From positions 292,268,001 through 292,332,000 of the forward strand of contig OZ024743.1 of NCBI GenBank assembly GCA_964016885.1: a DNA stretch of 64,000 bases, written 5' to 3'. Source of the stretch: Eledone cirrhosa (taxonomy: Eukaryota). The position numbers and the translations under genes were made by a program. The notes beneath the pieces were generated by a model. The model was not told the origin of the DNA. It made no database searches and worked only from the letters and a program-made list of their open reading frames with translations. Below, piece by piece: positions 1,714-52,830 of this stretch (positions are counted from its first letter, which is position 1; every line of letters starts with the position of its first letter).

Positions 1714-1828
1714 AATGGCGGTGAATTGGCAGTATCGGTAGAGGGTCGGACGCCATGCTTTACAGCACAGTTACGTCCCTTTACGGACTGAGTTCAAAAC
1801 CCGCCGAGGTTAACTTTGCCTTTCATGC
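1714..1828 (+). mobile_element. tRNA-derived SINE, 5' part
   Basis: A-box-like TGGCAGTATCGG, B-box-like GAGTTCAAAACC and the core CCGAGGTTAACTTTGCCTTTCAT. Homologous to 15226-15416. Confidence 0.75.
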
Positions 1829-2075
1829 TGGGGCTTTTTATATTGTTGGTGGGGAAGGGGGGAGCCAGCAGTGCCATAGTCGTTGGCGTTTGACCGGGTC
1901 ACTAAGTCAGTCTATTTATATATTTTGCTAGCCTCTCCCTTGCCTAGTAATACCGCCACCTTCCCCTTTCTTAAATTAACGGAAGGTAGTGGGGTAGTAA
2001 TGGTAGCGGCGATGATGGGATAGTGGTAGCAATGATGGAGTGGTGACGGCGGTGACTGTAGTTAGGGCGTTGTCG
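1826..2075 (-). repeat. Unclassified repeat X, 3' fragment
   Basis: Similar to 8290-8560 (ggggctttttatattgttggt, gctagcctctcccttg, accgccaccttcccctttc). Confidence 0.7.
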
Positions 2076-2237
2076 CTACTTAGTTCTTTTGAATAGACTG
2101 TATTGAGTATGCGTTTCTTTGATCTGCATATCTATGCGGTTTATCGCCTATGTTTAAGATATATATGTTGAAATATTTCCGTAATATTTGAATTAAACAT
2201 TTTGAGAAAACTTGAGATACAATAATAGTAATTCGGT

Positions 2238-2307
2238 AAAATAAAGTACCAGTAATACACTGGGTATTTGCTGGACTTGTGCCAAAAGTAGAAACAATTA
2301 TTATTAT
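2238..2307 (+). mobile_element. SINE 3' tail ending in (TTA)n
   Basis: ataaagtaccagtaatacactggg...cttgtgccaaaagtagaaacaattatt matches 15358-15420. Confidence 0.8.
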
Positions 2308-2671
2308 GCTGGGATTTGTGATGGTGGTGGTGAAATTACCGTTATCTGGCTGTTGTATTTAGTGTATACAGAGGGGTGGTGTGATAGGTGGTGTATCTAG
2401 GTTGTGGTGTTGGTGAAATTGCTGTTATTTGGCTGTTCTATATAGTGTAGACAGAGGGAGTTTTCTTCCATTTATAACCATTTTCTTCTTTGAATATAAA
2501 ATTTAAAATACAAAATTCAATTTTTGAGCGATATCACAGGATATTATGGGTACTCATTTCCTGAGGGTAAAACCTGGTGCAATATGTCCCATGTGTACTA
2601 AGAATTTTTATATCACAATTATTTTAAATATGTTAAAAATCAAAAGCTTACGCGAGCGATTCTATAAAACT
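2308..2671 (-). repeat. Unclassified repeat X, 5' part, flanked by a 32-bp direct repeat
   Basis: Homologous to 33730-34070 (reverse strand) and 8690-8860. An identical 32-mer lies at 2276-2307 and 2672-2703. Confidence 0.7.
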
Positions 2672-7400: not shown

Positions 7401-8090
7401 GATCATAATTTCATCCTTCAAGTTGGCAAGTTCATTCTCATTCATTTTCTTATCATTTACGATCTCATTATTTTCATTTGGAGTTTCATCCTGAGCATGC
7501 ACTCCCTCCACTTTTTCGATACTTTCTTTAATTTGTTCTGTTGCATTACAATATTTCTTCGTATATTGGCTAGTTTGTTACTGTCAATATAGCCTCTGTT
7601 TTCGGGATGTTTCTTTTTCCAGTTGATATATGTCTGTTCTGTATTCGATGTATTTGATGGGTAGTACATGGCAGTGTAGAAAGCCTCAAGGACTTCTTTA
7701 TTATCTTCCCTTGACCATTTTTCTCTCTTTTTCTTTGGATTTCTTGGTGGTGAGCATGGAGGCCCACCAGTAGGAGTATTCCGGATACGGGAGGTCTCCA
7801 GCTCCGAAGTGATGGGAAGGTTTCAACCATTAGCTGATTTTTCGACCCCAGTCTGGTTCCTCTCTGAGGGATGCGGCCCTTTTTTACCCGGGTGACGGCC
7901 GATCCGGTATGAGATTTTATCATTAGACATTTACTTTATTTTGTCGCATTTTATCCTTATCCGTCAAGGGGTAATCATGTCGTGTTACCACTTCTAGAAC
8001 GAGTGTCAACCAAGACTAGAGGGGTCGTTCTCCCCTAGAGACACGGCTATTCCCTGCCGGCCGCCATCCCGGTATTTCTTGGTCACGTGG
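4447..8090 (-). mobile_element. R4/Dong-like family A, near full-length disrupted copy (A2)
   Basis: RT motifs GIFQGDPLSPLLF and HLFYMDDLKLF (5758-6690). CCHC CRVC..HIISMC and RLE RPDIVL..LIDMSVP (4591-5691). The 3' end is followed by TAA on the sense strand. Confidence 0.9.
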
Positions 8091-8174
8091 TTTTCTTTTT
8101 GTTGTTTTTTAAAATTGTTATTATCATGAGTGGTTCCTTAATGTGAGCATTGCGTGGCTTAAGAATGAAATTAT

Positions 8175-8230
8175 TAATAATTGTCTCCACTCCAGGCACA
8201 AGGCCAGCAATCACCCAGTGCATTACAATA
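8175..8230 (-). mobile_element. Degenerate SINE tail fragment
   Basis: Minus strand gtaatgcactgggtgattgctggccttgtgcc...gacaattatt matches the SINE 3' end. Confidence 0.6.
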
Positions 8231-8289
8231 ATATAATATACTTTTTGTTGTAGTTGGCTGTTATTGTTGTTGGCTATGTCGGTGGTGGT

Positions 8290-8857
8290 GCCGGGGCTTT
8301 TTATATTGTTGGTGAGGAAGGGGTGAGCCAGCAGTCCCATAGTTGTTGATGTTGACATTTGGTGGCCAGGTCACTAAGTCAATCTATTTATATCTTTTGC
8401 TAGCCTCTCCCTTGTCTAGTGATACCGCCACCTTCCCCTTTCTCTCTCAAGTTAACAGGGGAATAGTGGTGGTAGCATTGAAGGAGTGGTGGCGGCGACG
8501 ATGGGATAGTGGTAGCAATGATGGATGGGGTGGGGTGGTGGCAGCGGTGACAATGCTGGTGGTCATGTCGATACTAGGCAGTGGTGATGTGATCGTATTA
8601 CTGTAGTGATGGTGTTGTAGCGGTGGTAGCAATGAAGGAGTGGTGGCGGCGGTGATGGGATAGTGGTGGTAATGATGGCAGTAGTGAGTGGTGGTGGTGA
8701 AATTGCCGTTATCTGGATGTTGTGTTTAGTGTACAGAGAGAGGTGATGGCGTAGGTGTTGTATCTAGTTTCTGGTGTTGGTGAGATTGGTGTTGTTTGGC
8801 TGTTCTATATAGCGTAGACAGAGGAGGGGGGGTATTCTTCCATTTATAGCCATTTTC

Positions 8858-8862
<5 letters not shown>
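8290..8862 (-). repeat. Unclassified repeat X upstream of A2
   Basis: Homologous to 33915-34560 and to 1826-2490. Confidence 0.75.
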
Positions 8863-15225: not shown

Positions 15226-15226
<1 letters not shown>

Positions 15227-15416
15227 AAGGCCGTGGATTGGAAGTATCGATAGAGGGCCGGACGCGTTGCTCTGACGCAAAGAGTTACGGCCCTTTCCAT
15301 TCTGAGTTCAAATCCCTCCGAGGTTAACTTTGCCTTTCATCCTTACGGGGTCAATTAAATAAAGTACCAGTAATACACTGGGTAATTGCTGGCCTTGTGC
15401 CAAAAGTAGAAACAAT
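15226..15416 (+). mobile_element. Full-length tRNA-derived SINE with (TTA)n tail
   Basis: B-box GAGTTCAAATCC, core and tail as in the other copies. Resembles octopus SINEs (recalled, not searched). Confidence 0.8.
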
Positions 15417-15431
15417 TATTATTATTATTAT

Positions 15432-17467
15432 TCTTTGAGTCTCAGTCATTGATGTTAGTTAACTGGAAAGTTTGTTGAAATGAATATCAAGCCTCTACCT
15501 GCAGCCTCAGATATTCAGGACATATCGGAGGGTTCTTGCTGTTCCCAGCAAGCATGCCTTTTGAAGCGTTCCAAAAAGCGTGGTGGGGCCAATTTTCTTT
15601 AACCATCCCTGGAACCTTTTTGAGATAGTATCTAGTGCGCCTATGACAATCGGGACCACTTTGACTTCATGGCAGTTCCAAATCATTTTTACCTCCCACT
15701 TTAAGTCCTGGTATCGGTTAATTTTCTCCCTCTCCTTCTCTTGCACTCTCGTGTCGAATGGGCAGGCCACATCCACAATCAGGCACGATCTTTTTTCCTT
15801 GTCCAAAACCACCATGTCAGGTCAATTGTGTTCCAGTTTCTTGTCCGTCTGTATCCTAAAATCCCATAGAACCTTCACCTGATCGTTTTCTATCACCGAC
15901 TCTGGCTTATGCTCATATCACTTCTCAGAATGTGGTAAATTGTTTACTTTGCATAGGTACCAGTGGATCAACCTGCCCATCACATCATGTCTCCAGCCTT
16001 TATAGTCTGGGCTAGGTGTTTACACTCGGATACAATGTGGGCCACAGTCTCCTCTCTCTCTCCACAGATCATGCACAGTGGGCTAGCCTCCTCCTTGTAA
16101 ATATGGTGCTTCAACCACTTCGTTTTGAGGGCCTGCTATTGCGCAGCCATTAACATTCCTTCTGTAGCATTTTTAAGGTCTCCTCTTTTCAACCAGTTCC
16201 ATGTCTGTGGATCTCTGAATTCAGTTTTCTCAAAGAAGGTACTATGAAGGGATTTTTCATGAAGGCTGCTCTTTCTCCTTGTTGTTATTTCCTCCTTGGA
16301 CATCCCCTCGTCTATTGTCCTCTCATTCAGTACAATTCTGAGCATTGGCTCCTTACTATCAGTCACGTATTTGTGTAGGTTGTTTTTCTCCATCTGAACA
16401 CAGTCCTCTATGCTGATAAGACCTCTTCCACCTTCAGATCTCCTTAAGTAGAATCTATCGACATCACTCCTCTTGTGGAACATGTTATAGATAGTCAATA
16501 GCATCCTAGTCTTCCTATCCATTTCTTTTTGTTCAGCAACATTCCATCTCAGAATTCCCGCACTGTACCTAATAATAGACACAGCTCGGGAATTTACTGC
16601 ACTTATGGCATTCCTACTCTTCAGATGTGACTTTAATACGCTCCTTACTCTCCGAATGTATTCAGATCTTTTCAATTACTTCATTTGTTTTTGTTCTTGA
16701 TGTCATCGGCCTCCAGAACACCCAAATACTTGTATCCTTCTTCAGTGTCAATTTCCTTTATCATCTCACCTGTTGGTACCTGGAATCCGTTGCTCTGCTC
16801 AATTTACCCCTCTTCATCACAAGGACTCCACACTTACTAAAACCAAATTGCATACATATATCATTGCTGAAAATACGGACAGTGTCAACAAGCACATCCA
16901 ACTCCTTCTCACTCTTCCCGAAGAGCTTAAGATCGTCCATGAAGAGGAGGTGATTGATGGTAAGCTCTCCCTTTCCCAACTTGTATCCTGCTCTCACTTT
17001 TCGCAGTATAATGGTCAGGGGTATCAGGGCAAGGACAAACAACAGAGTGGACAGACTATCTCCCTGGAAGATACCTCTCTTGATCTTCACGCCTCCCAAG
17101 GATTCTCCAGCTGATGTTAAGTCTGTTTTCCCGGACTTCATACTTTTGCCCAACAACTGTCTGATGTTAGCTGCCACCTTGAAGATAGCTAGGCTTTTGG
17201 TGATCCAAGAATGCCAAACACCTTTTTGTAGTGTATCCATCCCATGGCAAGACCAGTGTGTCTCCTCTTGCAAATGCCTCATTACCATCTTATCAATAAG
17301 TAACTGGTCCTTTGTACCACGGGTCTTCTTTTGGCATCCTTTCTGTTCGTACGGTAACAAGTTGTTTGTGTGGAGGTGATGGTAGATTTCCTCAGACATA
17401 ATGCTTGTCAACAGTTTCCACTTTACGGACAGACATGTAATAGATCTATAGTTGGTAACATCATTAC
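15432..17467 (-). mobile_element. R4/Dong family B, 5'-truncated disrupted copy (B3)
   Basis: RT and RLE ORF fragments homologous to B4. The 3' end sits in the SINE TTA tail. Confidence 0.9.
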
Positions 17468-31400: not shown

Positions 31401-33577
31401 TCCGTGTAGCTGACTATCTTGAATTGTGGACAGCCTATACTAGACCTATCTATTTCCCTACAAAATACTCTATCTAGATATAATCTGGATGACCCGATGC
31501 GGTTTATCCGAATCCACATTGGCACATTCGGGAAATCCACTCAGTACCTGTCAGACAGTTCAAAACGCCTGAGCAAGTTGGTGAGGCTCTTGCACCCTCC
31601 TCCCCTCTCCGCTAATCCCACACAGTCCCAGCGTGCATCTAGGATCCCTTTCCAGTCGCCCACTAACACTAAAGTGAGGGATGTTCCAAGAAAGGTCTCC
31701 AGACGCCGGAAGAAATCAAGCCGCCCTGCCCCTGTCGGGGCATAGAGGGCCACTAGCCTGAAAGCTTACCCGTCTCCGCTGGTCACGTCCAGCCCCACCA
31801 ACTTACCTTCTGGGTCCAGGACGATGGCCCGTATGGCGAGATCCAAACCTCTCCGAAAAAGCACAGCAACTCCTCCCCCCGATCCAGGACGGCTGGGAGA
31901 TGCGTTCACATCGTAGCCGCCGAAGATCGGTGCGAAGGCCCGTGCTTCGGAGATTCTGGTCTCGCTGATGGCCACTACATCTATGTTTAGTGACCTGAGG
32001 TCTCTTGAGCAGGTGGCCCTGCTTCCATGACAACCCCAAGCCACGCGCATTTATGCTTCCTATTCTGAGTGAGGTCATGTTGAAATGGAGTGGAAAAAGA
32101 TGGGAAAGACCACTTACCTTACTTCTCGTAGAGGAAGGATGGTTTCTCCATCCTTTTCACTGCTTGTGGGTAAGAGAGGTGGCCTCAACTTTTTAGCCTG
32201 AGGGCAGAAACCCCTTATGTGGGTTCCTTCACCACAAACGACGGTTACGGTGAGGTGGCTGCCGTCAGTGAGGTCTATTACCTCTGGGATCTCCTCAATG
32301 CTTTTTTTGGTCCGCTTGGATCAGGAGCTCCATCCCAGATCCGGACCAGTTCTCCTGCTTTTCTTTTGCTATTTCTATTATTTTGGTGTTGGACTAGATG
32401 CCGGCGAGGACGGCAGCCATTAGCCAGAGAATTTCGATGGCTGGTGGAACGAGGGTCACCCTGATCTTTACGAGTCTCTGGCCACAATAGCTTGGGACGA
32501 GTGTGAAGTCGTGGCTTCTTAATGGGTCCATAGAGTGCTATCTGGCCTCCTGTGGTATTCCAAAGAACACGTCCACGGTTCCATATTTCTGGCCATGTTT
32601 GATGTGGTGTTTTTTTGCCCACACATGTCCCAAAGCTTTTTGGATTTGGGACTCTAATGCCTGTTCCACTCGGCGCGATTTTATGTTAATCGTCCGATAA
32701 GACACGGTGCATAGGCGCCGATGCTCCATTTTATTAGGTGTGGGGGGTGAGGCTGACCCTGTACCCATCTATCTTTACCATTGTTTTGGCTTCATCTAAT
32801 TCCTCCTGACTTACCTGGATTTTTTCCCAATTTTTGACTACTTTGGCAAACGACACGGTGTTGTTATTCTCATTGTTGTTGTTGCTGTTTTTGTTATTGT
32901 TATTTCTGTTATTGTTATTTTTAGTTTCACTGTCAGTGGTGTTCGGTGTGGAAGAGTCGATTCCGGGTGAATCGATTTCGATGTCACGAGATCATTTTTT
33001 TTTTGTTTCTGTTGTCGCTGTGGTGGTGGTGGGGGTGGCGGTTTCAACACCTGCAGTCAGTGGACGTGTTCTTTGGACCACCACAGGAAGCCAGAGAGCA
33101 CTCTATGGCCATATGAAGAAGCGACGACTTCACACTCGTCCCAAGCTATTGTAGCCAGAGACTCGTAAAGATCAAGGTGACCCTCGTTCCATCGGCCATC
33201 GAAATTCCCTGGCTAATGGCGGGAAATAAATGTCTTCATGAGACAAATTTAAATTATTGCTACTGCTTATAATTTTAGTGTTGGCAAACGTAGTAATATT
33301 TACAATGGTGCTGTTGGTGTGAGGTGTTAGTTTGTGAGGAAGGACTGACACTGAGTCCTCCATGATTTTTCAAAGAAAAATTTTTGTTTTATAATTATAA
33401 AAGTTTAAATTTTGGGCTCAAGGCCCCAATCTTTTTGGGTGTCCTTTTCAGATAATAATGTATGTGCACTTATATACAGTTAATAATAAAAAATTTCCAT
33501 AAATGGCAATTTTAAACAACTGAAAATAACAAGACTTTGCGGAGCTCACGATGATACGATTTATTACGTAGGTCGCC
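28431..33577 (-). mobile_element. Tx1-like T1, degenerate copy with both ends, an ~0.8-kb ORF1 deletion and an internal inverted duplication (T1b)
   Basis: Same 5' start (GGCGA) and 3' end as T1a. Many frameshifted ORF pieces. Confidence 0.9.
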
Positions 33578-33612
33578 AATAATAATAATAATAATGATAA
33601 TAATAATAATAA

Positions 33613-33674
<62 letters not shown>
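33578..33674. repeat. (TAA)n microsatellite
   Basis: Seen directly. Confidence 0.95.
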
Positions 33675-33675
<1 letters not shown>

Positions 33676-33704
33676 GGGAAGAATAATAATAAGAATAAGG
33701 GAAG

Positions 33705-34600
33705 AAGACGCACGAGGTGACGGAGGTCATGAAATCGCTCCCGTAAGTTTTGAATTTTTAACATATTTAAATCATTTGTGAAATAACAACTCTTAGTACA
33801 AATGCTACGTAAAGCACCCGGCTTGAGCCCCAAAAAAATTCGGACCCAAAATATATTGTTATAAGGCTCAAATATTCAAATATTCAACTTTGTATTGTAC
33901 ACTGTATATCCAAAAAAAAATGGCTATAAATGGAAGAAGAAGAACCCCCCCCCCCTCCTCTCCTCTGGCTACACTATATAGGACAGCTAAACTCACCAAC
34001 ACCAGAAACTAGATACACCACCCACCCCATCATCTGTGTACACTGAACACAACAGCATTTTCACCTTCACCGCCACCGCTCACTACGGCCATCATTACCA
34101 CCACTATCCCATCACCGCCGCAACCACCCCTTGACTCCTTCACTGCTGCTGCCACCGCTACAGCACCATCACTACAGTAATACGGCTCAAATATTCAAAT
34201 ATTCAACTTTGTATTGTACACTGTATATCCAAAAAAAAATAAAATGGCTATAAATGGAAGAAGAAGAACCCCCCCCCCTCCTCTCCTCTGGCTACACTAT
34301 ATAGGACAGCGAAACTCACCAACACCAGAAACTAGATACACCACCCACCCCATCATCTGTGTACACTAAACACAACAGCATTTTCACCTTCACCGCCACC
34401 GCTCACTACGGCCATCATTACCACCACTATCCCATCACCGCCGCCACCACCCCCTGACTCCTTCACTGCTGCTGCCACCGCTACAGCACCATCACTACAG
34501 TAATACGGTCGCATCACCGCCACCACTGCCTCGGTATCGACATCACCACCACCACTGTCTCAGTATCGCCAACGACGCCAGTCTCTGCTGGCTACCACTT
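33705..34600 (+). repeat. Unclassified repeat X with an internal ~320-bp tandem duplication, upstream of B4
   Basis: 33865-34185 is repeated at 34184-34508. Homologous to the X copies at 1.8-2.7 kb and 8.3-8.9 kb. Confidence 0.75.
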
Positions 34601-34849
34601 CCACATTATAGAATTCCTAATACTAACAAAGAGGAAGGCATCAAAATATATAGATAGACTCAAAAGAAAAAAGAAAAAACAAACAACAAAAGCAGCACAG
34701 CAACAACAGTAAAAAACGAGAAAAACAGAGAAAAACAAAAACAAAAAAAGAAACCCCAAAAACGTAAAGAAAATAAGAATGAAGAGAGAAGCAGGCGGAC
34801 GGACAGAGAAGAGGGGGGAAAAAGTAAAACTTAAAAAACAAAAACTAAG

Positions 34850-37800
34850 TCAGACATTCGAATACTACATTACAATGAAACTTATGCTTATTCATTTTTG
34901 GGGCCCTTTCTGCCCGTGTGTTTGTTTGTTTATGTGTGTCCGTATACAGCGTGGTGATAATGCCACACAAGGGCCAAGTGGGATGGCGGATCCACAGATG
35001 GCTATGTAAACATACATTCGCCAATCCTCGATAAGAGTGTTTAAATATCGAACATAAACAGTTCGAATAACGGTGAAATGGAGACTAGAACGTCATGTGA
35101 CAGACTCTCACCCAACAGGTGCCCCCTGGCTCAGCAGCAGGAACCTGACTGTCAACCAAATACTGCTGATGTTGGAGGAAGAAGAAGAAGGAAAGGGGCC
35201 AGAACCAACTGGACGAAAGAATTGAATAGAACTGTTATGCAATGCTACCTGAAAAGTAACCCCAAGGAGAGGGGCTACAGGAGACGGATGCATAACATCT
35301 GGAACGAGATTGGTTTATTTAAATTAGATGAACAAAAATTGGCCGGGCAGGCTCGGGTAATAAGAACTAATGGGTGGATAAGCGAGCTGGAACTGGAGGA
35401 ACTGAGCAGAGAGAATGGCTTGGAGTTGGCGGGTGTAGTATGCCAGACAAGCGAGCCGGCGGGAAATGAAGGTGAGGAGGTCCTGAGAACGGAGGAACCA
35501 CCCGAAGCAGACAATGATCTGAATACTGAGATAAATAATACCTGGAACAGAGAAACGGCCACTGAGGAGATGAATGCTGACGGGCTAGGACAAGATTCGG
35601 TTGACATCCTAAATTTAGTGGTAGATGAGTTGAACAATGATAGTGGGAGACCTATGAACCTAAGATTTGTAGACAGGAAAAAGTTAAAAGAAACAACAGC
35701 TAAGGTAAACAAAGTCATCCCATACCTTGAGGCGAGGAGTCTTCACCAGTGCAACAATATCCTCAAAGCAACAGCAAATACGGTGAGGAAACTACTTGGT
35801 ATAAAAGCGAGAGGAAACAACAGACAAGAAAGAGCAGAGCCGTGGTGGAAGAAGCGACTGAGTGGGCAAATCGGGGAAATGAGAAATGACATAGGAAAGC
35901 TTGAGTCACTACTGAATGGGACACTAAAAAACATAGGCACTAAAAATAGACTGGAAATAAAATACAAAACTAGGAGTAAAAAGCTAAATATTATCATAGA
36001 GGAATTGAAGCAACGCATTGTAGCAAAGAGTGCCAAAATCAGGCGATACGAGAACAGAGTCAGTCAGTATAAACAGAACCGCATGTTCGACAACAACCAG
36101 AAGATGCTGTTTGGACAGCTTGAGGGGAAAGAAAGAGGCAACGACTTGATCCCTGGGGCGGAACAAGCTAAAACATTCTGGAGAGGAATATGGGAGCAGG
36201 ATGTTAGACACAATGCCCAGGCAGGGTGGATTGAGACAGTACAGAGGGAGATCGGTGAGCAGGCACAGCAACAGACTGATTTGAGTATCACAGTTGAAAC
36301 TCTTAAGGGGCAAGCCAAAAAACTAACCAACTGGAAATCACCAGGCCCAGATGGTGTGCAGGGGTATTGGATTAAACATTTAACATCCCTCCACCCGAAG
36401 CTGACGGCCATGTTCAATGACTGCTTGGTGTCGGGTGAGGTGCCAGAGTGGTTGACAAAAGGTACCACAGTTCTGATAATGAAAGACCGAATCAAGGGTA
36501 ATGATGTTACCAACTATAGACCTATCACATGTCTGCCCGTAATGTGGAAACTCTTGACGAGCATTGTGTCTGAGGAAATCTACCATCACCTCCACACAAA
36601 CAACTTGTTGCCGGACGAACAGAAAGGATGCCGAAAGAAGTCACGTGGTACAAAGGACCAGTTGCTTATTGATAAGATGGTAATGGGGAATTGCAGGAGG
36701 AGACACACTGATCTTGCCATGGGATGGATAGACTACAGAAAGGCATTTGACATGGTGCCTCATTTCTGGATCACCAAAAGCCTGGAGATCTTCAGGGTGG
36801 CAGATAACATCAGACAGTTGCTGGGCAGGAGTATGGGGTCCTGGGAGACAGAGTTGACATCAACTGGAGTATCCTTGGGAAGCGTGAAGATCAAGAGAGG
36901 TATCTTCCAGGGAGATAGCCTGTCCCCTCTGTTGTTTGTCCTTGCCCTGATGCCCTTGACCATTATGCTGCGAAAAGTGAGAGCAGGATACAAGTTGGGA
37001 AGGGGAGAGCTTACCATCAATCACCTCCTCTTCATGGACGATCTTAAGCTCTTCGGGAAAAGTGAGAAGGAGTTGGATGTGCTTGTTGACACTGTCCGTA
37101 TTTTCAGCAGTGATATATGTATGCAGTTTGGTATTGGTAAATGTGGAGTCATTGTGATGAGGAGGGGTAGGTTGAGCAGAAGTAACGGGATCCAGATACC
37201 AACAGGTGAGATGATAAAGGAAATTGACTCTGAGGAAGGATACAAGTATTTGGGCGTTCTGGAGGCTGATGGCATAAAGAACAAAAAAATGAAGGAATTG
37301 TTAAGAACTGAATACATTCGGAGAGTAAGGAGCGTATTGAAGTCACATCTGAACAGCAGAAATGCCATAAGCGCAGTAAATTCCCGAGCTGTGTCTATTA
37401 TTAGGTACAGTGCGGGAATTCTGAGATGGAATGTTGCTGAACAAAAAGAAATGGATAGGAAGACTAGGAAGCTATTGACTATCTACAACATGTTCCACAA
37501 GAGGAGTGATGTCGATAGACTCTACCTAAGGAGATCTGAGGGTGGAAGAGGTCTTATCAGCATAGAGGACTGTGTTCAGATGGAGAAAAACAACCTATAC
37601 AAATACGTGACCTATAGTAAGGAGCCAATGCTCAGAGCTGTACTGAAGGAGGGGACAGTAGGCCAGGGGATACCAAAGGAGGAAATAACATCAAGGAGGG
37701 AGAGCAGCCTTAAGGGAAAATCCCTTCATAGTACCTTCTTTGAGAAAACTGAATTTAGAGATCCACAGACATGGAACTGGTTGAGAAGAGGAGACCTCAA

Positions 37801-38544
37801 AAAGGCTACAGAGGGAATGCTAATGGCTGCGCAGGAGCAGGCCCTCAAAACTAAGTGGTTGAAGCACCATATCTACAAGGAGGAGGCTAGCCCACTGTGC
37901 AGGATCTGTGGAGAGAGAGAGGAGACTGTGGCTCACATTGTGTCCGAGTGTAAACACCTAGCCCAGACCCACTATAAGGGCTGGAGACACGATGTGATGG
38001 GCAGGGTGATCCACTGGCACCTGTGCAAAGTAAACAATCTACCACATTCTGAGAAATGGTATGAGCATAGTCCAGAGGCGGTGATGGAGAACAGTCAGGT
38101 GAAGGTACTGTGGGATTTTAGGATACAGACGGACAAAAAACTGGAACACAATAGACCTGACCTGGTGGTTGTGGACAAAGAAAAAAGATCGTGCCTGATT
38201 GTGGATGTGGCCTGCCCGTTCGACACGAGAGTGCAAGAGAAGGAGAGGGAGAAAATTAACCGATACCAGGACCTAAAGTGGGAGGTGAAAAGGATTTGGA
38301 ACTGCCATGAAGTCAAAGTGATCCCGATTGTCATAGGCGCACTGGAGACTATCTCCAAAGGTTTCCAGGGATGGTTAAAGAAAATCGGCCCCTTCACGCT
38401 TTTCGGAACGCTTCAAAAGGCATGCTTGCTTGGAACGGCAAGAACCCTCCGATACGTCCTGAATATCTGAGGCTGCAGGTAGTGGCTTGATATTCAATCC
38501 AACGGACTTTCCAGTTAACCAACATCAATGACTGAGATTCAAGG
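34850..38544 (+). mobile_element. R4/Dong-like family B, intact copy (B4); 5' boundary uncertain
   Basis: Single uninterrupted ORF, short 3' UTR and TAA tail. Confidence 0.9.
35078..38470 (+). CDS. R4/Dong-clade polyprotein: N-terminal domain, reverse transcriptase, CCHC zinc knuckle and restriction-like endonuclease (1130 aa)
   Basis: RTNWTKELNRTVMQCY N-terminal motif; KSPGPDG, NYRPITCL, GIFQGDSLSPLLF, FMDDLKL; CRIC..HIVSEC; RPDLVV..IVDVACP. Confidence 0.93.
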   Translation: METRTSCDRLSPNRCPLAQQQEPDCQPNTADVGGRRRRKGARTNWTKELNRTVMQCYLKSNPKERGYRRRMHNIWNEIGLFKLDEQKLAGQARVIRTNGWISELELEELSRENGLELAGVVCQTSEPAGNEGEEVLRTEEPPEADNDLNTEINNTWNRETATEEMNADGLGQDSVDILNLVVDELNNDSGRPMNLRFVDRKKLKETTAKVNKVIPYLEARSLHQCNNILKATANTVRKLLGIKARGNNRQERAEPWWKKRLSGQIGEMRNDIGKLESLLNGTLKNIGTKNRLEIKYKTRSKKLNIIIEELKQRIVAKSAKIRRYENRVSQYKQNRMFDNNQKMLFGQLEGKERGNDLIPGAEQAKTFWRGIWEQDVRHNAQAGWIETVQREIGEQAQQQTDLSITVETLKGQAKKLTNWKSPGPDGVQGYWIKHLTSLHPKLTAMFNDCLVSGEVPEWLTKGTTVLIMKDRIKGNDVTNYRPITCLPVMWKLLTSIVSEEIYHHLHTNNLLPDEQKGCRKKSRGTKDQLLIDKMVMGNCRRRHTDLAMGWIDYRKAFDMVPHFWITKSLEIFRVADNIRQLLGRSMGSWETELTSTGVSLGSVKIKRGIFQGDSLSPLLFVLALMPLTIMLRKVRAGYKLGRGELTINHLLFMDDLKLFGKSEKELDVLVDTVRIFSSDICMQFGIGKCGVIVMRRGRLSRSNGIQIPTGEMIKEIDSEEGYKYLGVLEADGIKNKKMKELLRTEYIRRVRSVLKSHLNSRNAISAVNSRAVSIIRYSAGILRWNVAEQKEMDRKTRKLLTIYNMFHKRSDVDRLYLRRSEGGRGLISIEDCVQMEKNNLYKYVTYSKEPMLRAVLKEGTVGQGIPKEEITSRRESSLKGKSLHSTFFEKTEFRDPQTWNWLRRGDLKKATEGMLMAAQEQALKTKWLKHHIYKEEASPLCRICGEREETVAHIVSECKHLAQTHYKGWRHDVMGRVIHWHLCKVNNLPHSEKWYEHSPEAVMENSQVKVLWDFRIQTDKKLEHNRPDLVVVDKEKRSCLIVDVACPFDTRVQEKEREKINRYQDLKWEVKRIWNCHEVKVIPIVIGALETISKGFQGWLKKIGPFTLFGTLQKACLLGTARTLRYVLNI

Positions 38545-41500: not shown

Positions 41501-44500
41501 CCTGGTCCCTGTAAGCCTTACGTGCCGCAAATGACATGTTTAGCTTCCAGTAACCAGGTCCTAACCTACGCGTCTAACTAGGTCGGCCATACAGATCACA
41601 AACTTGTGATCTGAATAGGCCACCGTTTCAAAACGTGGACAGTTTACACTATTTCTGTCTATTTTCCTAATGAATATCCTGTCTATATACGATCTAGATG
41701 ACCCTATGCGGTTAGTCCAGGTCCACACTGGCGCATTAGGGATATCTAGTTGGTACCTGTCAGACATTTGGAACTGGCTGATCAGGTTCTTAGAGGCTTT
41801 TGCACCCACCCCCCACCCGCTCCTATCGGATACTCCGACACAGTCCCAGCGTTCGTCTAAGATGCCGTTCCAGTCCCCCGCTAACAGTAAAGGGCGAGAC
41901 ATACCCAGAGAGGCTTCCAGGCGTCTAAAGAAGTCCGGCCGTCCTGCCCAGTAGGAGCATAGATGGCCACCAGTCTAAAGGCACCACCTTCGTTATTGTT
42001 CACGTCGAGGACCACCAACTTCCCGTCCGGGTCCCGGAAGATCGACCTTACCTCGAGATCCAGGCCTTTCCTAAACAGCACTGCCACCCCGCCTCCCATT
42101 CCCGGCCAACTAACAGATGCAAAGATCTGATAGTCGTCGAAAATGGGGGCTAGTGCGCGCGTGTCGGAAATCCTGGTCTCGCTGACGGCAATTACATCCA
42201 TTTCTAGAGACCTGAGGTCGTTGAGCAGGTGTCCCTGCTTCCAGGACGATCCCAGGCCTCGCACATTTAATCGTCCTACTCTTAATACGGCCACGTTGAC
42301 AGGTTAAAAAGAGAGAGGAAAGGTTTACTTACCTTCCGGGCTCTTGTGAAGGTTGGGTGGTTCGACTTCCATTGTTGGTGGGGTTTCTTTTGGAAACCCC
42401 TTTAAAGGTCTTGAAGTGGGTTTTACGTTCGGGGTTCCCACGTCCCGAGGAAAGCTGTCTCGTATTTCTTTGTATAAATCGAGCGACATTCGCACCAGAA
42501 ACAAATCTTCCGGCAAGCGAAATGTGCTCGATTTAAAATGTCCCCCTCTTTTAGTATATTTTCCCTTCGTGCTACGAGGGCCATCAGTTCCTTGTTGGCC
42601 CTCCTGACGCGCACCAAGTTTTGTATGTTTTGTTGGTGTGATTTTATTTGTTTGCGTGGCTGTGGTTGTGATGGTTTTGGTGGTGTTGTTTCGGTTGTGT
42701 CTGTGTTTGTTGTGAGTGCGGTGTCTGTGGTTTCAGATGTTTGTGTGTATATTTGTTCTTGCGTCTGTTTCAGTTGTTTGCGTTTGGGGGATTCTGGTGA
42801 TGGTGATGGTGGTGTTGATGTTGGTGTTATTGGAGAGATGTTTGCGTGGGTGTTGTCTGCGTTTTGTACTGTGGGTGATTTTGTGCTTTGTTGATTTTTT
42901 TTGTCTTTTTGTGTTTCCTTTTTTGTATTTTGGGGGATTTGGGCTTTTCCTCATCTTCACTACTGGTAGATAAGGTTTCTCTGTCTGTAAGTGTGTCTGT
43001 GTGTATGTTTATGTTTTTATTGGTGTGTGTATTTGGGTGGAGGGATTTAACAGCTCTCCTCGTTCCCCCCCCTGAGTGGTCAATGTTTGTGGTGGTCATT
43101 CTATTGGTGTTGTTGTTGGTGGATTTGCCGGTGCTGGTGTTGGTTGTGGTCCTCTCCCAGGCGTCGGCAGCAGTGGAGCCTTTGAACCCTTGCCTCTTTC
43201 AGCAGTTGAGGGCAGAAGGTTAGCAAATGGGTTTTTTCCCCACAAACAAAACAATGCGGTCTTTTCAGTTCGGTCATAATGTGAATGACCGTCCCATTCT
43301 GAAGGCGGATGTGGTCCGGGATTGTCTTCACATTCTCGGGCCTAATCTGGAGAAGGATCTCCAGGTCAACCTGGACCAGTCCTCTCTGGCCGTTCTGGTC
43401 ACTTCTATAAGGACGGTATCCGTCCCCTCCACAATCACACATCCCAGAAGCCACCACATGTCTAGTCCTGGTGGAATTCTGGGAATGCGGAGGCGGGCCG
43501 TTCTTGTTCCCATGTGGGAGGGGTACATTATGACCTTGCTGGTTTTGCAAGGAGTCATAGCGTGTTTCATAGCGAGGGCTTCTGACTTGAACAACACCGA
43601 AATGGTGCCGTACTGTCTGCCCCTCGCTATGTATTCGGTGTCTTCTCTGATGCACTACAGCGCGACTTCGACATCTGCGTGTGGGATTAAAGCTGCCCTT
43701 TTGGTTTGTGCTGAGATGCATCTATAAAGCACCGTTCTGCGCTCCACTGCCTCAATAGCTTCTACCGGGACAATTATGTTGACCCAGGTTTGCTCTTGTT
43801 TGATGTGCTTCCATGCCTGGGCCAACTTTTCATATTTGTTTGAGAGGTCCATGTTGAAGCATGGCCTCTCTTTTGCTGCTGCCGCAGCGAAAGTGTTCTT
43901 GATTTCGTTGGGGGTGTTGTTGTCGTTGTCGTTGTTCTTGTTGGTATTGTTGTTATCACTGTCGCTATTATCATTGTTGTCTTTGTTGCCACCGTTGTTC
44001 TCGGTGCATTTGGTATTGTTGCTGTTGGTGTTGTCGCTATTTGTTTTCATGTTAGTGGTGTTGATATTTTTGTTGCATTTGTCAATTTTTTTATTATCTG
44101 TATTTTCGTTGTCGCTGTTACTGTCATTTTTTTCCAAAATTAGAGTTCTCTTTGGTATCATTGGTGTCTTTGTTTACATTGTTTGTGGTGGTGTTTGTGT
44201 TATCAATTTGTGTTAATTTCGCTGTAGAGCTCCTCTCAACTTCCACGTCGTTGTCGCACGCCAGCAGACATATCGCTGGGGCGCGTGGCTCAGCCATGAT
44301 TTTTTTTTTCTTGGTAAATTTTTTAAAATGTAAAAAAAGTTCAAATATTTGGGCCAAAAGGCCCAAATATTATTCTTCCCCCTTCACAGGGCAAAGTCCA
44401 AAGGCTTCTATGCCTTACACAACAACAAAAATTCAAAAAATCAGTTTTGATAGGTAAATAAGTGAACTTACGGGAGCGAGCAAAAAGACGTCCGTTCAGA

Positions 44501-44503
44501 CTC
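38581..44503 (-). mobile_element. Tx1-like family T2, full-length disrupted copy
   Basis: ORF1 has CFVCGEKTHLLTFC. ORF2 fragments include APE (LNVRGL, AVSET), RT (RQGCPLS, AYTDD) and CPRC..HALVQC. Clearly diverged from T1, with TAA on both flanks. Confidence 0.9.
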
Positions 44504-44530: not shown

Positions 44531-44610
44531 GCTTTCTTTATTAACCACAAATGTTTACACAAAGTAGACATTAAGGGCAGTACAGGACAATACAGGACAA
44601 TACAGGACAA
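44531..44610 (-). mobile_element. T1 3'-terminal ~80-bp fragment (T1c)
   Basis: Matches the T1 3' UTR at 28431-28500. Confidence 0.8.
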
Positions 44611-44706
44611 GAAGAAGAAGAAGAAGAAGAAGAAGAAGAAGAAGAAGAAGAAGAAGAAGAAGAAGAAGAAGAAGAAGAAGAAGAAGAAGAAGAAGAAGAA
44701 GAAGAA
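44609..44706. repeat. (GAA)n microsatellite
   Basis: Seen directly. Confidence 0.95.
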
Positions 44707-47671: not shown

Positions 47672-50600
47672 TTACAGACACATACTCAGAGAAGGCCCAT
47701 TCATTCGGGCCATACTTGCTTCTCTCACCCATCTTTCAACAAAATGCTGGGAAGAGAGCACTTCCCTCTCTACCCTGATTTTCCTTTTCAAATGAAATTT
47801 GAAAAAGTTAATCAGGGCATCACCGAAGAGGTAAGTGCTCGTCTTCAGCCCTTTCAAACGTGTCCACCATACTATCTCTTTCGCCATGGCCACCAGACAG
47901 ATAAAAACTGCCTGCCCTTCCCGGCTAAAGGAAGAGGGCGGAGCAAACCTCACGATGGACTCAGCTGATAGCTGGATCCGTCCTACACGTGACAGCAGGT
48001 GTTCGACATAAACCCACAAGTCAGCAATGCTCGGACACTGGACGAGTGCGTGCAGGACGGTTTCGTCGCCCTGTGCGCATCTCAGACATGCCCGGCTGAC
48101 GGCACCTCCATGCTTGTAAAGTTTATCCCGAACTGGCAAAGCACCCCGGTAGCACTGCCAGGCCAGGGATTTCTGGAAGTTGTCCATAGGCCCCGGCCCG
48201 AAAGTCCTTCCGAAGAGATTGGCTAGTTGATTTTCGTCGACGCCTAGATTTTCTCCAAGTACGTCGTCGCTCTTCCCCTCCACTAATCCCCTATAGAACG
48301 CCAAGGTGGAGTTTCCACCGATCACATTGCCCGATTGGTCGAGGGCTGTGAGCGCCTGAAGACATTCCAGTCTCCAAGCGCTCCCTCTCGGTCTTCGCTT
48401 GACCCAGGACTGCAGCTCCGTCAAGGAGACGAGCTGGGGAAAAACGTGTCTAGCAAACGGCGACCACACCTGATCACCGTCGAGGAAGAGGTGGAGATTT
48501 CGTAGCCTGAGCGCGTGTCTGCGCATCATCAGCCACGGCATGCCCAACCCTCCACATAGTGGGTGTTGACAGCAGATGGACCGCCTGACCATCGGAGCGC
48601 GTCCCTTCCACAAGAAGCGAAAGAGCAAACGCTCCAGCGCAGTCAGGCGGGGCTTAGGACAAGGTACGACGGTCAGGCGGTAGTAGATGACGGACGCGAT
48701 GTACGCGTTAGCCACCTCCGCTCGACCTTTCAGGGATAGCTTCCTCTCGGCCCATTTCTGGGTGAGAGAAGCCACCCTGCTCGTCACCTCGTCCCAGTTT
48801 TTGTCCGTCTGGAGGTCTGGACCGAACCAGACCCCTAGCAATTTAACCGGTGCGTCTGTCCAGCGCCCGACGACGCTGTTGGACGGCATGGAACTGCCTC
48901 TCCAGGTGCTGAGCTGCAGGCCAACTGACTTTTCCTGGTTGATCATTGCTCCTCTCACCGCTTCGTATTCTCTTAGTGTAGTGCCGATCGCCTCGATGTG
49001 TTTGGCGTTCGACACCACTACGGTGACATCGTCGGCATATGCTGACACGGATCTTCCGCATCCTAGTTCGCGCGGGATCCCCCTCAACGTCTCCAGTTTG
49101 TGCAGTAATGGCTCGAGAGTCAATACGTACAATAGGGACGAGAGGGGACATCCTTGGCGGACCGAGCGCATGATGTTGAACGGTTCCGAAGGGTGACCCT
49201 TCACTCTCACTACAGAGCAGATGTTGCTGTGCATGGCAGCGATCCAGCCTCTGAAGACGGGCCCAAAGCCAGCCGCCCTCAGGACTGCCTCTAGGTAACG
49301 ATGGTCGACCCTATAGAAGGCTTTCGACTGATCTAAATTGATCAAAGACCCACCCGTGCCAGATTCCCTAGCTAACCTCTCTACGATGTATCGCATGAGG
49401 TGGAGGTTGTCGTGGATGGATCTGTCGGGAATGGCGCATGTCTGTGCCTCTCCCACCAGACCACCAACGACAAGCGCCAACCTCTTTGCTAGCACCTTGG
49501 CCAAAATCTTGAACTCTGTGTTTAGCAGAGTTATGGGCCTAAAATTATCTATGTTATCCCCCTTGTTCGGATCCTTTCTCAGCAGCGCCACCGCTCCTCG
49601 GCTCACAGAGCTGGGAATTCTCCCGTTCTGTTGCCAGTTGCAGTAGACGTCCGCCAAGAGGCCTCCGAACAAGTTTGGCATTTGTACGTAAAGTTCATAG
49701 GGCAGACCATCCAGACCAGGCGATTTACCCCTTGTGCAACTAGTCATTGCATCCCGTACTTCAGCGGTTGTTATCGGCTTTTCGCAACACTCCGCCTCAG
49801 TGGCCGAAAGCCGCGGCAGTCCGTCGAGGTAGACACTAAAGTCCATCCCTCGATCCGGCCCGCCACTGCCCCCGAACAGTTGAGCGAAGTGTCGCTGAAA
49901 AGCTTCACACATTTGCTCGGGATCGAGTAGCATGCGCCCGTCGTGGTCCACCAAAGACCGGATCGTGGCTTTGTTGCCACGACGCGCCTCCGCCACTCGG
50001 GCCCATTGAACGGCTTTCGTCCCCTCGTGTCTGAGAGCACGCACCCTAGGTCTGACAACGCAGCCTTCGTGCTTTGCATTGAAGAATTGGTCAAGGGCCA
50101 ATTTCGCCGCAAGTACGTCGGTCGCGATGCCTTTGCTAAGCGCCCCATCTAATTTTCTAACTAATTCTCCCTCTGCTCTATTTTTCTCTATTGCTAAAGT
50201 CTTACTAAACCTAATGGACTCTATTCTAATTGCTCTTTTCAGAGCAAACCACCACTTGTTGTTGACGATGGCCCCCGTCAACGCCCGCTTAACTAGTTCG
50301 CTAATCCGGTCTCTGTAGGCCTTGCACGTTGGTAAGGACGCGTTTAGCTTCCAGTAGCCGGGTCCTCGCCTATGAAGCCTATCTAAGTCAAGCACACAGA
50401 TCACGAATTTGTGGTCCGTGTAGCTGACTATCTTGAATTGTGGACAGCCTATGCTAGACCTATCTATTTCCCTACAAAATACTCTATCTAGATATGATCT
50501 GGATGACCCTATGCGATTTGTCCAAGTCCACATTGGTACATTCGGGAAATCCATTCGGTACCTGTCAGACAGTTCAAAACGTCTGAGCAGGTTGGTGAGA

Positions 50601-51091
50601 CTCTTGCACCCTCCTTCCCTATCCACTAATCCCACACAATCCCAGCGTGCATCTAAGATCCCGTTCCAGTCGCCCACTAACACTAAAGAGCGGGACGTTC
50701 CAAGAAAGGTCTCCAGACGCCGGAAGAAATCAGGCCGCCCTGCTCCTGTCGGGGCATAGACGGCCACTAACCTGAAAGCTTGCCCGTCTCCGCTGGTCAC
50801 GTCCAGCACCACCAACTTACCTTCTGGGTCCAGGAAGATGGCCCGTATGGCAAGATCCAAACCTCTCCGAAAAAGCACAGCAACTCCTCCCCCCGATCTC
50901 GGACGGCTGGGAGATGCGTACACATCGTAGCCGCCGAAGATCGGTGCGAAAACCTGTGCTTCGGAGATTCTGGTCTCGCTGATGGCCACTACATCTCTGT
51001 TTAGTGACCTGAGGTCGTTGAGCAGGTGGCCCTGCTTCCATGACAACCCCAAGCCACGCGCATTTATGCTGCCTATTCTGAGTGAGGTCAT
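47672..51091 (-). CDS. Tx1-like ORF2: APE endonuclease, reverse transcriptase and zinc-binding domain (1139 aa)
   Basis: SINARGL, AISET, VGDWN, LDRVF, YTDH; KSPGLDG, NFRPITLLN, RQGCPLS, AYADD; CLRC..ETVLHALVQC. Confidence 0.93.
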   Translation of the reverse strand: MTSLRIGSINARGLGLSWKQGHLLNDLRSLNRDVVAISETRISEAQVFAPIFGGYDVYASPSRPRSGGGVAVLFRRGLDLAIRAIFLDPEGKLVVLDVTSGDGQAFRLVAVYAPTGAGRPDFFRRLETFLGTSRSLVLVGDWNGILDARWDCVGLVDREGGCKSLTNLLRRFELSDRYRMDFPNVPMWTWTNRIGSSRSYLDRVFCREIDRSSIGCPQFKIVSYTDHKFVICVLDLDRLHRRGPGYWKLNASLPTCKAYRDRISELVKRALTGAIVNNKWWFALKRAIRIESIRFSKTLAIEKNRAEGELVRKLDGALSKGIATDVLAAKLALDQFFNAKHEGCVVRPRVRALRHEGTKAVQWARVAEARRGNKATIRSLVDHDGRMLLDPEQMCEAFQRHFAQLFGGSGGPDRGMDFSVYLDGLPRLSATEAECCEKPITTAEVRDAMTSCTRGKSPGLDGLPYELYVQMPNLFGGLLADVYCNWQQNGRIPSSVSRGAVALLRKDPNKGDNIDNFRPITLLNTEFKILAKVLAKRLALVVGGLVGEAQTCAIPDRSIHDNLHLMRYIVERLARESGTGGSLINLDQSKAFYRVDHRYLEAVLRAAGFGPVFRGWIAAMHSNICSVVRVKGHPSEPFNIMRSVRQGCPLSSLLYVLTLEPLLHKLETLRGIPRELGCGRSVSAYADDVTVVVSNAKHIEAIGTTLREYEAVRGAMINQEKSVGLQLSTWRGSSMPSNSVVGRWTDAPVKLLGVWFGPDLQTDKNWDEVTSRVASLTQKWAERKLSLKGRAEVANAYIASVIYYRLTVVPCPKPRLTALERLLFRFLWKGRAPMVRRSICCQHPLCGGLGMPWLMMRRHALRLRNLHLFLDGDQVWSPFARHVFPQLVSLTELQSWVKRRPRGSAWRLECLQALTALDQSGNVIGGNSTLAFYRGLVEGKSDDVLGENLGVDENQLANLFGRTFGPGPMDNFQKSLAWQCYRGALPVRDKLYKHGGAVSRACLRCAQGDETVLHALVQCPSIADLWVYVEHLLSRVGRIQLSAESIVRFAPPSSFSREGQAVFICLVAMAKEIVWWTRLKGLKTSTYLFGDALINFFKFHLKRKIRVEREVLSSQHFVERWVREASMARMNGPSLSMCL

Positions 51092-51125
51092 GTTGAAAAG
51101 GAGTGGAAAAGATGGGAAAGACCAC

Positions 51126-52830
51126 TTACCTTACTTCTCGTAGGGGAAGGACGGTTTTTCCATCCTTTTCACTGCTTGTGGCCTCCTCAGGAAGGATGTC
51201 CTTATAAATCCTCCTGGAGAGTGCTTGTCGGAAGTCTCCGATGTCTTTGGGGAATGTTTGTTTTAGTGTCATGTACGTTTTCTGTGTGATGCGAGTGATT
51301 TGTATGTGTGGAGGTGGTGTGAATTTTGGGGTTGTTGTGTAGTCTTTTTCTGTGATGCTGGTGTTGTGTTGGATGTAGTGCAATAATTGCTTGTTGTTCA
51401 AATTTAATGCTGTGAAGTGTGTATCGTTTTGGTTGTTTTGTTTTGTTTGCGTTTGTTGTGGGTTTGTTTCTGTTTCGCATTTTGGTGACTTTTGTGGTGT
51501 AGGTGATGGTGGTGTTGGAGTTAATGATGGTGATGGTGTTGGTGTTTGGGTTGATGGGGTTGGTGATGCTGGTGTGGATGGTGGCATATCTGTCCTAACT
51601 TTTTTGTTTCTTAGTTTATTTGTTTCCCTCTGTATTTTGTTTTTGGAGGGGGAAGGAAGAGAATTTTTTCTTTTTTGGTTTCTTTTTTTTTTTCCGGATA
51701 TCGTTTCCCACTCCTCGTCGTCACAATCTGTCTCCAGTTGTGATAGGCCGGGGAGTGGAAAATCCTCCACAGCCGTTAGTTTTGGTTGTGGTGTGGTGGA
51801 TGGTGTAGGCGCTGGTGCTAGTTCTGAAGCGTTGGGTGGTGGTGGTGTTGGTTTTGCTGGTGGTGGTAGTGGTGTTGGTTTTGCTACTGTTGCTGGGGTT
51901 GTTGCTGTTATAGTTGCTTCTGTTGTTGCTGCTACAGTTGTTGCTGGCATCTCTGCTACTGGTGGTGTTGATGGTTGTGTCACTGGGGTGGGTAGGAGAG
52001 GTGGCCTCAACCTTTTAGCCTGAGGGCAGAAAGCCCTTAGGTGGGTTCCTTCACCACAAACGACACACCTAGGTCTTCTGCCCTCGACAATTACCGTGAG
52101 GTGGCTGCCGTCAGTGAGGTCTATTACCTCTGGGATCTCCTCAATGCTTTTTTGGTCCGCTTGGATCAGGAGCTCCATCCCAGATCCGGACCAGTTTTCC
52201 TGCTTTTCTTTTGCTATTGTTATTATTTTCGTGTTGGCCTCGATGCCGGCGATGACAGCCGCTATTAGCCAGGGAATTTCGATGGCCGGTGGAACGTGGG
52301 TCACCCTGATCTTTACGAGTCTCTGGCCACAATAGCTTGGGACGAGTGTGAAGTCGTCACTTTTTAATGGGGCCATGGAGTGTTCTCTAGCCTCCTCTGG
52401 TGTTTCAAAGAACACATCCACGGTTCCATACTTTTGCCCACGTCTGATGTGGGTTTTTCTTGCCCACACATGTCCCAAAGCTTTTCGGATTTGGGACTCG
52501 GATGCCCGTTCCACTCGGCGCGATTTTACATTTATTGTTCTATACGACACGGTGCACAGGCGCCGATGCTCCATTTTATTAGGTGGGGGGGGGGGGGGTG
52601 AGGATGACCCTGTACCCATCTTTCTTTACCATTTGTTTGGCATTTTCTAAATCTTCTTGAGTTACCGTGAACGCTTCGAATTGTTTTGCTACTCTGGCGA
52701 AACTGAGGGTCGGTTTTATAATGTCATTGTTGTTGTTGTTGCTATCGTTGATATTAATTTTATTTTCAGTTCTGGTGGTGGTGACGTCAGTCGTCTTTGG
52801 TGGGGAAGAGTCCATTTTGCTTGATTTCAT
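51126..52830 (-). CDS. Tx1-like ORF1 (gag-like, CX2CX4HX4C knuckle, Pro/Thr-rich linker), with a frameshift at a G-run near 52590
   Basis: ORFs 52579-52878 and 51126-52619 join across a homopolymer, which may be a sequencing error. Contains CVVCGEGTHLRAFC. Confidence 0.8.

Follow-up and report, generated by a model that had tools for sequence, protein, structure and literature searches.

The repeat X, which lies upstream of the Dong copy B4 in the 64,000-nucleotide stretch of DNA analysed here (the window), is the 5' leader of two R4/Dong families, A and B, and not a separate repeat. Sequence comparison across the 3.0-Gb animal assembly, probably that of an octopod judging by its repeats, makes it likely that these families captured the leader ready-made from a Tx1 element as a putative RNA polymerase II promoter, and that it has since been passed between A and B.

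Positions 1-53,000 of the window form a nest of non-LTR elements within (TAA)n tracts. Two of the element types, T1 and T2, encode APE and RT; the other two, A and B, have a single ORF with RT and without APE. The features relevant here are the following (a slash marks a donor or acceptor boundary).

1826..2661, minus strand: third and older copy of the X leader, preceding Dong A1; broken by SINE pieces; has TCGCTCGCGTAAGCT
8160..8862, minus strand: X leader of Dong A2, truncated on its 5' side; made up of an X unit, an A-specific tail and a 66-nt SINE 3' end, with A proper following
33360..33577, minus strand: T1 (Tx1-type) 5' UTR; leader homologous, with donor-like AAG/GTTTGT in most copies
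33578..33698, plus strand: target tract (TAA)n/AAG separating the T1 5' end from the Dong B4 start
33699..33742, plus strand: element 5' end and first exon, 44 nt, GGGAAGAAGAC...TCGCTCCC; putative, probable internal promoter core, retained in spliced copies
33735..33749, plus strand: motif TCGCTCCC/GTAAGTT, found in the X variants and in T2; the 5' splice donor is at 33743
33743..33919, plus strand: AT-rich 5' UTR intron, apparently homologous to the Tx1 leader
33920..34560, plus strand: ATG, then a C/A-rich low-complexity stretch with early stops; ORF1-like by position and composition only
34560..35040, plus strand: B-specific leader tail with conserved pyrimidine tract and acceptor-like TACAG/ at 34948-34949
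35045..38470, plus strand: single ORF of B4, a copy of Dong B, spanning 1141 aa between stops; includes RT, a CCHC-type knuckle and a PD-(D/E)xK-type nuclease, no APE
44290..44503, minus strand: T2 (Tx1-type) 5' UTR; has the 15-mer of X

The start of X is sharp: of 137 copies, 71 have the donor GT 44-46 nt past the TAA run, and in 14 the distance is shorter. The B4 leader contains two tandem units of ~325 bp (33858-34185 and 34177-34508), the number of which ranges from one to at least five in other X copies. In A-type leaders the intron ends in AAAAAAAG/AAAATGG, the AG of which has been lost in the young B copy B4. The positions given in a preliminary description of this DNA for TCGCTCCCGTAAGTT (33735-33749) and its T2 counterpart (44479-44465) hold, with the nonamer acggaggtc at 33720-33728 and that of T2 at 44495-44487, as does the placement of X ahead of both B4 and A2. 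In the A2 copy (8290-8862), however, the 5' end is truncated and the motif absent, and the third copy, at 2661-1826 on the minus strand before A1, had been overlooked. The match between the starts of X and T2 stands for TCGCTCCCGTAAGTT, which is constant and has 2,151 exact genomic matches against 6 for a reversed control. It does not stand for the nonamer, which is peculiar to the young B leader and is replaced in other X variants by gtagaaggtc, gcggaaggtc or atatcgttatgg; with this variation the suggestion of a DPE-like GGACG is not supported. Each X copy of the window does, as described, face a T1 5' end across (TAA)n, but of 59 loci scored only 8 show this arrangement, which fits a common target, and T1 neighbours in head-to-head position are incidental. 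In many X copies (AAG)n separates the TAA run from the 5' end, and the B copy at 44609-44706 begins at an (AAG)n tract within T2.

Families A and B are placed in the R4/Dong clade by their domains, motifs and (TAA)n target. In a domain search the 1141-aa ORF of B4 matches RVT_1 only, Exo_endo_phos being absent. Its translation carries C-terminal CRIC...H....C and RPD...D motifs, which we take to be a CCHC knuckle and an REL nuclease, and the zf-RVT match is weak. A W-T-K-E-L-N...GY...M...W stretch is visible near the N-terminus and, when checked as a SANT/Myb-like domain, gave no Pfam match. The TAA/AAG polarity expected of (TAA)n insertion is found upstream in 86 of 88 non-T2 loci. Homologues were found at 30-66% identity, nearly all of them unnamed. 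The A and B proteins are 39% identical over 821 aligned residues; the ORF2 proteins of T1 and T2 share 59-74% identity. The Tx1-type ORF2 at 47675-51130 contains Exo_endo_phos, RVT_1 and zf-RVT and has a 499-aa frame upstream. For T1 and T2 we assume the label Tx1, carried over from the preliminary description and from general knowledge, the features tested here being the APE, RT and zf domains.

Several further Tx1-type sequences were noted. A third family has its 5' end at L077:2475-3200, with (ATT)n and AAG/GTTCGT at ~+41; its leader fits a combined T1+T2 profile, and its ORF1 starts MEIFDLETV... and includes a block resembling T2 ORF1. Loci L187-L216 represent an older and larger T2 subfamily (453 pattern matches) with one added base before the donor, giving CCCA/GTAAGT or CCCT/GTAAGT. 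In the T1 copy L168 nearly all of ORF1 is deleted, and the leader is joined straight to the ORF1 end (…TATACGAGAAGTAAGGTAAGT…).

The identity of X is settled by what follows it in the genome. Its first 216 nt gave 1,488 genomic candidates, and the 40 that were scored were all identical. In samples biased to young copies, the B-specific tail follows within 1.5 kb at 29 of 30 identical-X loci, the remaining one being a tandem array of at least five 325-bp units; the X-linked tail is present ahead of A at 23 of 30 A 5' loci, 21 of which show the full X start; and 29 of 30 loci with the A-type X tail (X') continue into A. An unselected sample, the first 90 listed of the 2,151 motif matches, all on one contig (C1), comprised 38 XB, 12 XA and 11 XC leaders joined to B, 17 XA and two XB leaders joined to A, two T2 copies, and eight matches for which the 1.5-2.3 kb read contained no A/B 5' region. 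This scoring of downstream sequence, a check that the preliminary description had proposed genome-wide, yields 61 B and 19 A, and since 80 of the 90 matches are joined to A or B, X is the leader of both families. The leaders of A and B are ~80-99% identical. X had been listed as a repeat of its own; it is simply the 5' end of autonomous elements, fixed in A and B, and no stand-alone X family was found among these first 90 matches. Likewise, no X-free ancestral subfamily of A or B was found among the loci examined, and a search of the fetched loci for a third Dong family without X returned only a few diverged fragments among 335 matches.

X shares with Tx1 5' UTRs its motif, its length, an intron-like segment and the context of its ATG. 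We compared the intervening sequence using a T1+T2 profile built from 31 T1 and 38 T2 stretches running from donor to ATG, with the motif excluded. In a first pass over 8 leaders the most diverged variant, XC, stood out, and so all XC, all XA and 8 XB leaders of the unselected sample were retested without the terminal A-run, against 200 block shuffles per leader. Nine of the 12 XC leaders beat all 200 shuffles and align in register, mostly profile 5-127 on sequence 6-129, scoring up to 22 bits; for comparison, a T1 profile scores 23-28 bits on T2. The sequence AT[AC]AAG lies at ~+69 in XC and at +63-69 in T1 and T2. Only one of 31 XA leaders beats all shuffles (the basal A-linked L120, 16 bits) and none of the 8 XB leaders does, and the reciprocal XC profile is weak, detecting 3 of 31 T1 and 15 of 38 T2 leaders (medians 1.1 and -1.3 bits). 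Judged from XC, the X leader looks Tx1-derived, and this alignment lends support to the earlier proposal that R4/Dong elements captured a Tx1-type leader.

The direction of transfer is indicated by the leader ATG, which opens a frame of at least 60 codons in 15 of 24 T1 and 12 of 33 T2 copies and in only 2 of 115 X copies, pointing from Tx1 to Dong. It is unlikely, if marginally the most probable of the alternatives, that the related leaders came to both classes from a third source, such as a host first exon and intron, or passed from Dong to Tx1. A search for a Tx1-polarity family with an X-like start gave only 5 matches at 4 places, all of young-B type by the matched text, so that a direct Tx1 donor is missing; and because an ancestral subfamily of A or B free of X did not turn up, capture is deduced from the Tx1 side. 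Past the ATG of X there is no significant profile match to T1 or T2 ORF1, ATG position and composition being alike, and a search for homologues of T1 ORF1 returned none at E 1e-5. The leader tree, moreover, has no outside root. Against a third source or a reverse transfer, the leader precedes ORF1 in three Tx1 families, with its ATG opening a long frame, whereas in Dong the leader ATG is functionless and far from the ORF; and the A leader, which has a SINE end within it, is visibly a mosaic.

The tree was computed from 54 leaders (14 A, 32 B and 8 T), a chosen subset in which near-identical young copies were thinned. A 99/99 branch separates the X leaders from those of T1 and T2. The A-linked leaders are scattered among the B-linked ones, with five label changes by parsimony, three of them forced by well-supported branches, and a tree that unites the A leaders in one clade is rejected (p-AU 0.0003). 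Given these several positions of A-linked leaders, the leader has likely been swapped repeatedly between A and B; the old leaders of A and those of B both hold basal positions. Embedded in the A leader are a 66-nt SINE 3' end and a remnant of TTA/TAA, and SINE insertions are present in old B leaders. These pieces are consistent with the leaders having grown by read-through in nested clusters.

The GTAAGT of the motif, already described as a donor, behaves as one that the spliceosome recognises, to judge from two genomic copies of A, L156 and L160, that lack exactly a GT...AG stretch of 167-169 nt: CCC is joined to AAAATGG, the sequence after AAAAAAAG. The two copies lie on different contigs, are identical at 590 of 629 aligned bases and carry several different indels, and their nearest unspliced relatives differ, so that they likely record two events. 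They emerged from 13 loci matching a pattern of exon 1 followed by anything but xT, among which were eight point or 1-nt changes, one SINE insertion and four deletions starting at the GT. In the other two deletions, the neighbouring pair L154 and L155, the loss begins at the donor and stops 5 nt short of the L156/L160 endpoint, where there is no AG. Six loci matched a wider pattern, namely two of the above again, three point changes and L312, in which the donor is joined to A proper and the AG is not confirmed. Four deletion events at the donor compare with ~0.5 breaks expected at one position (extrapolated to 2,100 copies from 4 breaks found along 185 nt in 88 loci; P ~0.002), in a search anchored on the donor and with a rough background. 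The clean spliced copies number 2 against ~2,100 motif-bearing 5' ends. The proximal AG has been lost in most young B leaders, and the strong acceptor-like site at 34949 is kept in all B subfamilies; splicing to this site before the B ORF was seen in 0 of 25 candidate junction loci. No spliced copies were found in 23 T1 matches, in the 30 T2 loci read of 453 matches, or at the predicted T2 junction. Contigs from five sequencing runs of unspecified kind, which could reveal neither start sites nor absence, contained no GT-AG joint.

X might be the leader of these elements and yet not their promoter. RNA produced by read-through in nested clusters could have its sharp end made by processing, and copies do occur in tandem clusters. 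We consider such an origin improbable, to much the same degree as a third source for the leader. An Rfam search with E up to 5 at the 5' ends of three loci returned low-complexity matches only and no ribozyme; the motif is invariant where its flanks diverge; and the Tx1 homologues begin equally sharply.

Convergence is less probable still. If the same factor-binding and U1 site had evolved in both element classes, AT-rich sequence might account for the remaining resemblance. Certainly the young X leaders, that of the window included, have no detectable homology to T1 or T2 past the motif: downstream of it the window's X compares with T2 at z 2.0, matched or exceeded by 27 of 500 shuffles and not significant alone, while the similarity of T1 to T2 is clear (z 7.8). 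In all, 38 of the 39 XA and XB leaders are not significant, and the donor lies 31-32 nt from the 5' end in T2 against 44-46 nt in X. Yet the in-register XC signal over ~120 nt survives shuffling in 10-, 20- and 30-nt blocks, and UTR length and ATG context are equal in X and Tx1. Natural AT-rich sequence, too, scores no more than 2.8 bits unless it is a Tx1 leader: this was the best of 718 tiles of the window, and the best of 348 AT-rich tiles taken from the loci, run with T1 and T2 leaders filtered out, reached 11.9 bits and proved to be the leader of the third Tx1 family.

A non-autonomous X inserting independently upstream of Dong in the same TAA tracts, as the preliminary description had offered as its other reading, is largely refuted and has very little left to recommend it beyond the eight motif matches with no A/B 5' region in the sequence read: the 80 others are fused at regular spacing, through family-specific sequence, to the Dong ORF region, at a joint with neither TAA tract nor tail where a SINE-like X should show its own 3' end and tail and ORF-less copies, and the spliced copies retain X exon 1 fused to A.

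Capture from Tx1 could have come about as follows. Dong and Tx1 elements accumulate in common TAA/TTA tracts, where either insertion of a Dong element after a Tx1 5' end or template switching would place it in a transcript from the Tx1 promoter that the Dong enzyme could copy whole. The Tx1 ORF1 start would then have decayed into spacer, and later swaps between A and B would have used the common leader as homology. Copying of mostly unspliced RNA would keep the leader, rare spliced RNAs giving rise to SpIRE-like copies. We incline, by a modest degree, to a further-reaching form of this proposal: that an RLE lineage acquired its internal, intron-bearing Pol II promoter as a 5' module from an APE-type Tx1 element with the same microsatellite target, that the module circulates between Dong families only 39% identical, and that splicing at the donor sets the full-length RNA available for copying.

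To our knowledge, the transcription of RLE elements that lie off the rDNA, in scattered microsatellites, is not well settled. X would provide a concrete transcription route for such elements, in the form of a 220-nt piece whose donor class is traceable, and the spliced copies add genomic evidence that its GTAAGT donor is recognised by the spliceosome. The following comparisons draw on the available portions of the reports cited. Dong elements of the R4/Dong clade (Bombyx Dong, DongBg and ostracod Dong) target TAA (PMC7998251, PMC3812793), and A and B resemble the R4/Dong elements described there in their single ORF, RT, REL-type nuclease, lack of APE and (TAA)n insertion. They depart from those descriptions, as far as available, in a leader of 0.8-1.4 kb with a relationship to Tx1 5' UTRs, a splice donor and tandem units. 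Dong-R4 and L1-Tx1 have been recently active in Octopus vulgaris (PMC13282606), and a Dong with its full ORF has been recorded in O. bimaculoides (PMC9115989); the X leader may partly account for this recent activity of Dong-R4, as reported for octopus genomes (PMC13282606). Among microsatellite-targeting examples of the Tx1 group are Kibi and Koshi (PMC3812793); X is unlike this group in having no ORF1 or APE-RT behind it and in its TAA rather than TTA polarity.

Promoter capture by LINEs is itself known. Mouse L1 has recruited 5' UTRs and promoters, with 11 replacements estimated (PMC3600994), and tobacco RTE elements have switched 5' ends (10.1101/2022.11.04.512097). There, as here, non-homologous 5' ends have been taken up and exchanged and the leader contains tandem monomers, and the routes proposed are those suggested for X, template switching or insertion beside a promoter. 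In the accessible parts of those accounts, exchange is within one clade or from an unknown donor, whereas X has a probable APE-type Tx1 donor, an RLE recipient and families 39% identical. What is probably new, therefore, is transfer from an APE-type donor to an RLE-type recipient. We found no report of a Tx1-derived leader on R4/Dong elements in the open literature; Repbase, supplements and subscription papers could hold one. Human L1 SpIREs are copies without a 5' UTR intron, made by retrotransposition of spliced RNA (PMC5860796), and L156 and L160 are like them in the exact loss of a 5' UTR GT...AG stretch. They differ, going by the sections available, in belonging to an invertebrate RLE element and in numbering two clean copies against ~2,100 5' ends. 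For R2, an RLE-type relative, Pol I co-transcription and release through an HDV-like ribozyme have been described (PMC11331408); set against this account, as far as it is available, Dong A and B have a spliceosomal donor and no Rfam ribozyme match.

Some smaller observations concern the sequence around the leader. In A proper, just 5' of the ORF (7960-8060, minus strand), short complementary segments (GTGTC with GACAC, AACGA with TCGTT, and TCTAGGGG with CCCCTCTAG) could pair as a pseudoknot; Rfam gave no match. A candidate pseudoknot at 35037-35070 was rejected, as it overlaps the first codons and has no clear covariation by eye. SINE bodies derived from LINEs have been described (PMC5786205, in the part available). 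The window contains copies of an abundant SINE that inserts in TTA polarity (15226-15435, 1714-1829, 2233-2307 and 8161-8226), and its 3' end is a fixed component of the A leader. Its head is presumably tRNA-like. An ATG in exon 1 (33729-33746), conserved in XA, XB and XC and without counterpart in T2, opens a five-codon uORF that ends in the TAA of the donor (ATG RAA TCG CTC CCG TAA). At the start of the B ORF (35043-35080), older B subfamilies have ATG TCG AAC where young B has ATA, and young B has gained a new ATG, from GTG, 11 codons downstream of the old start.
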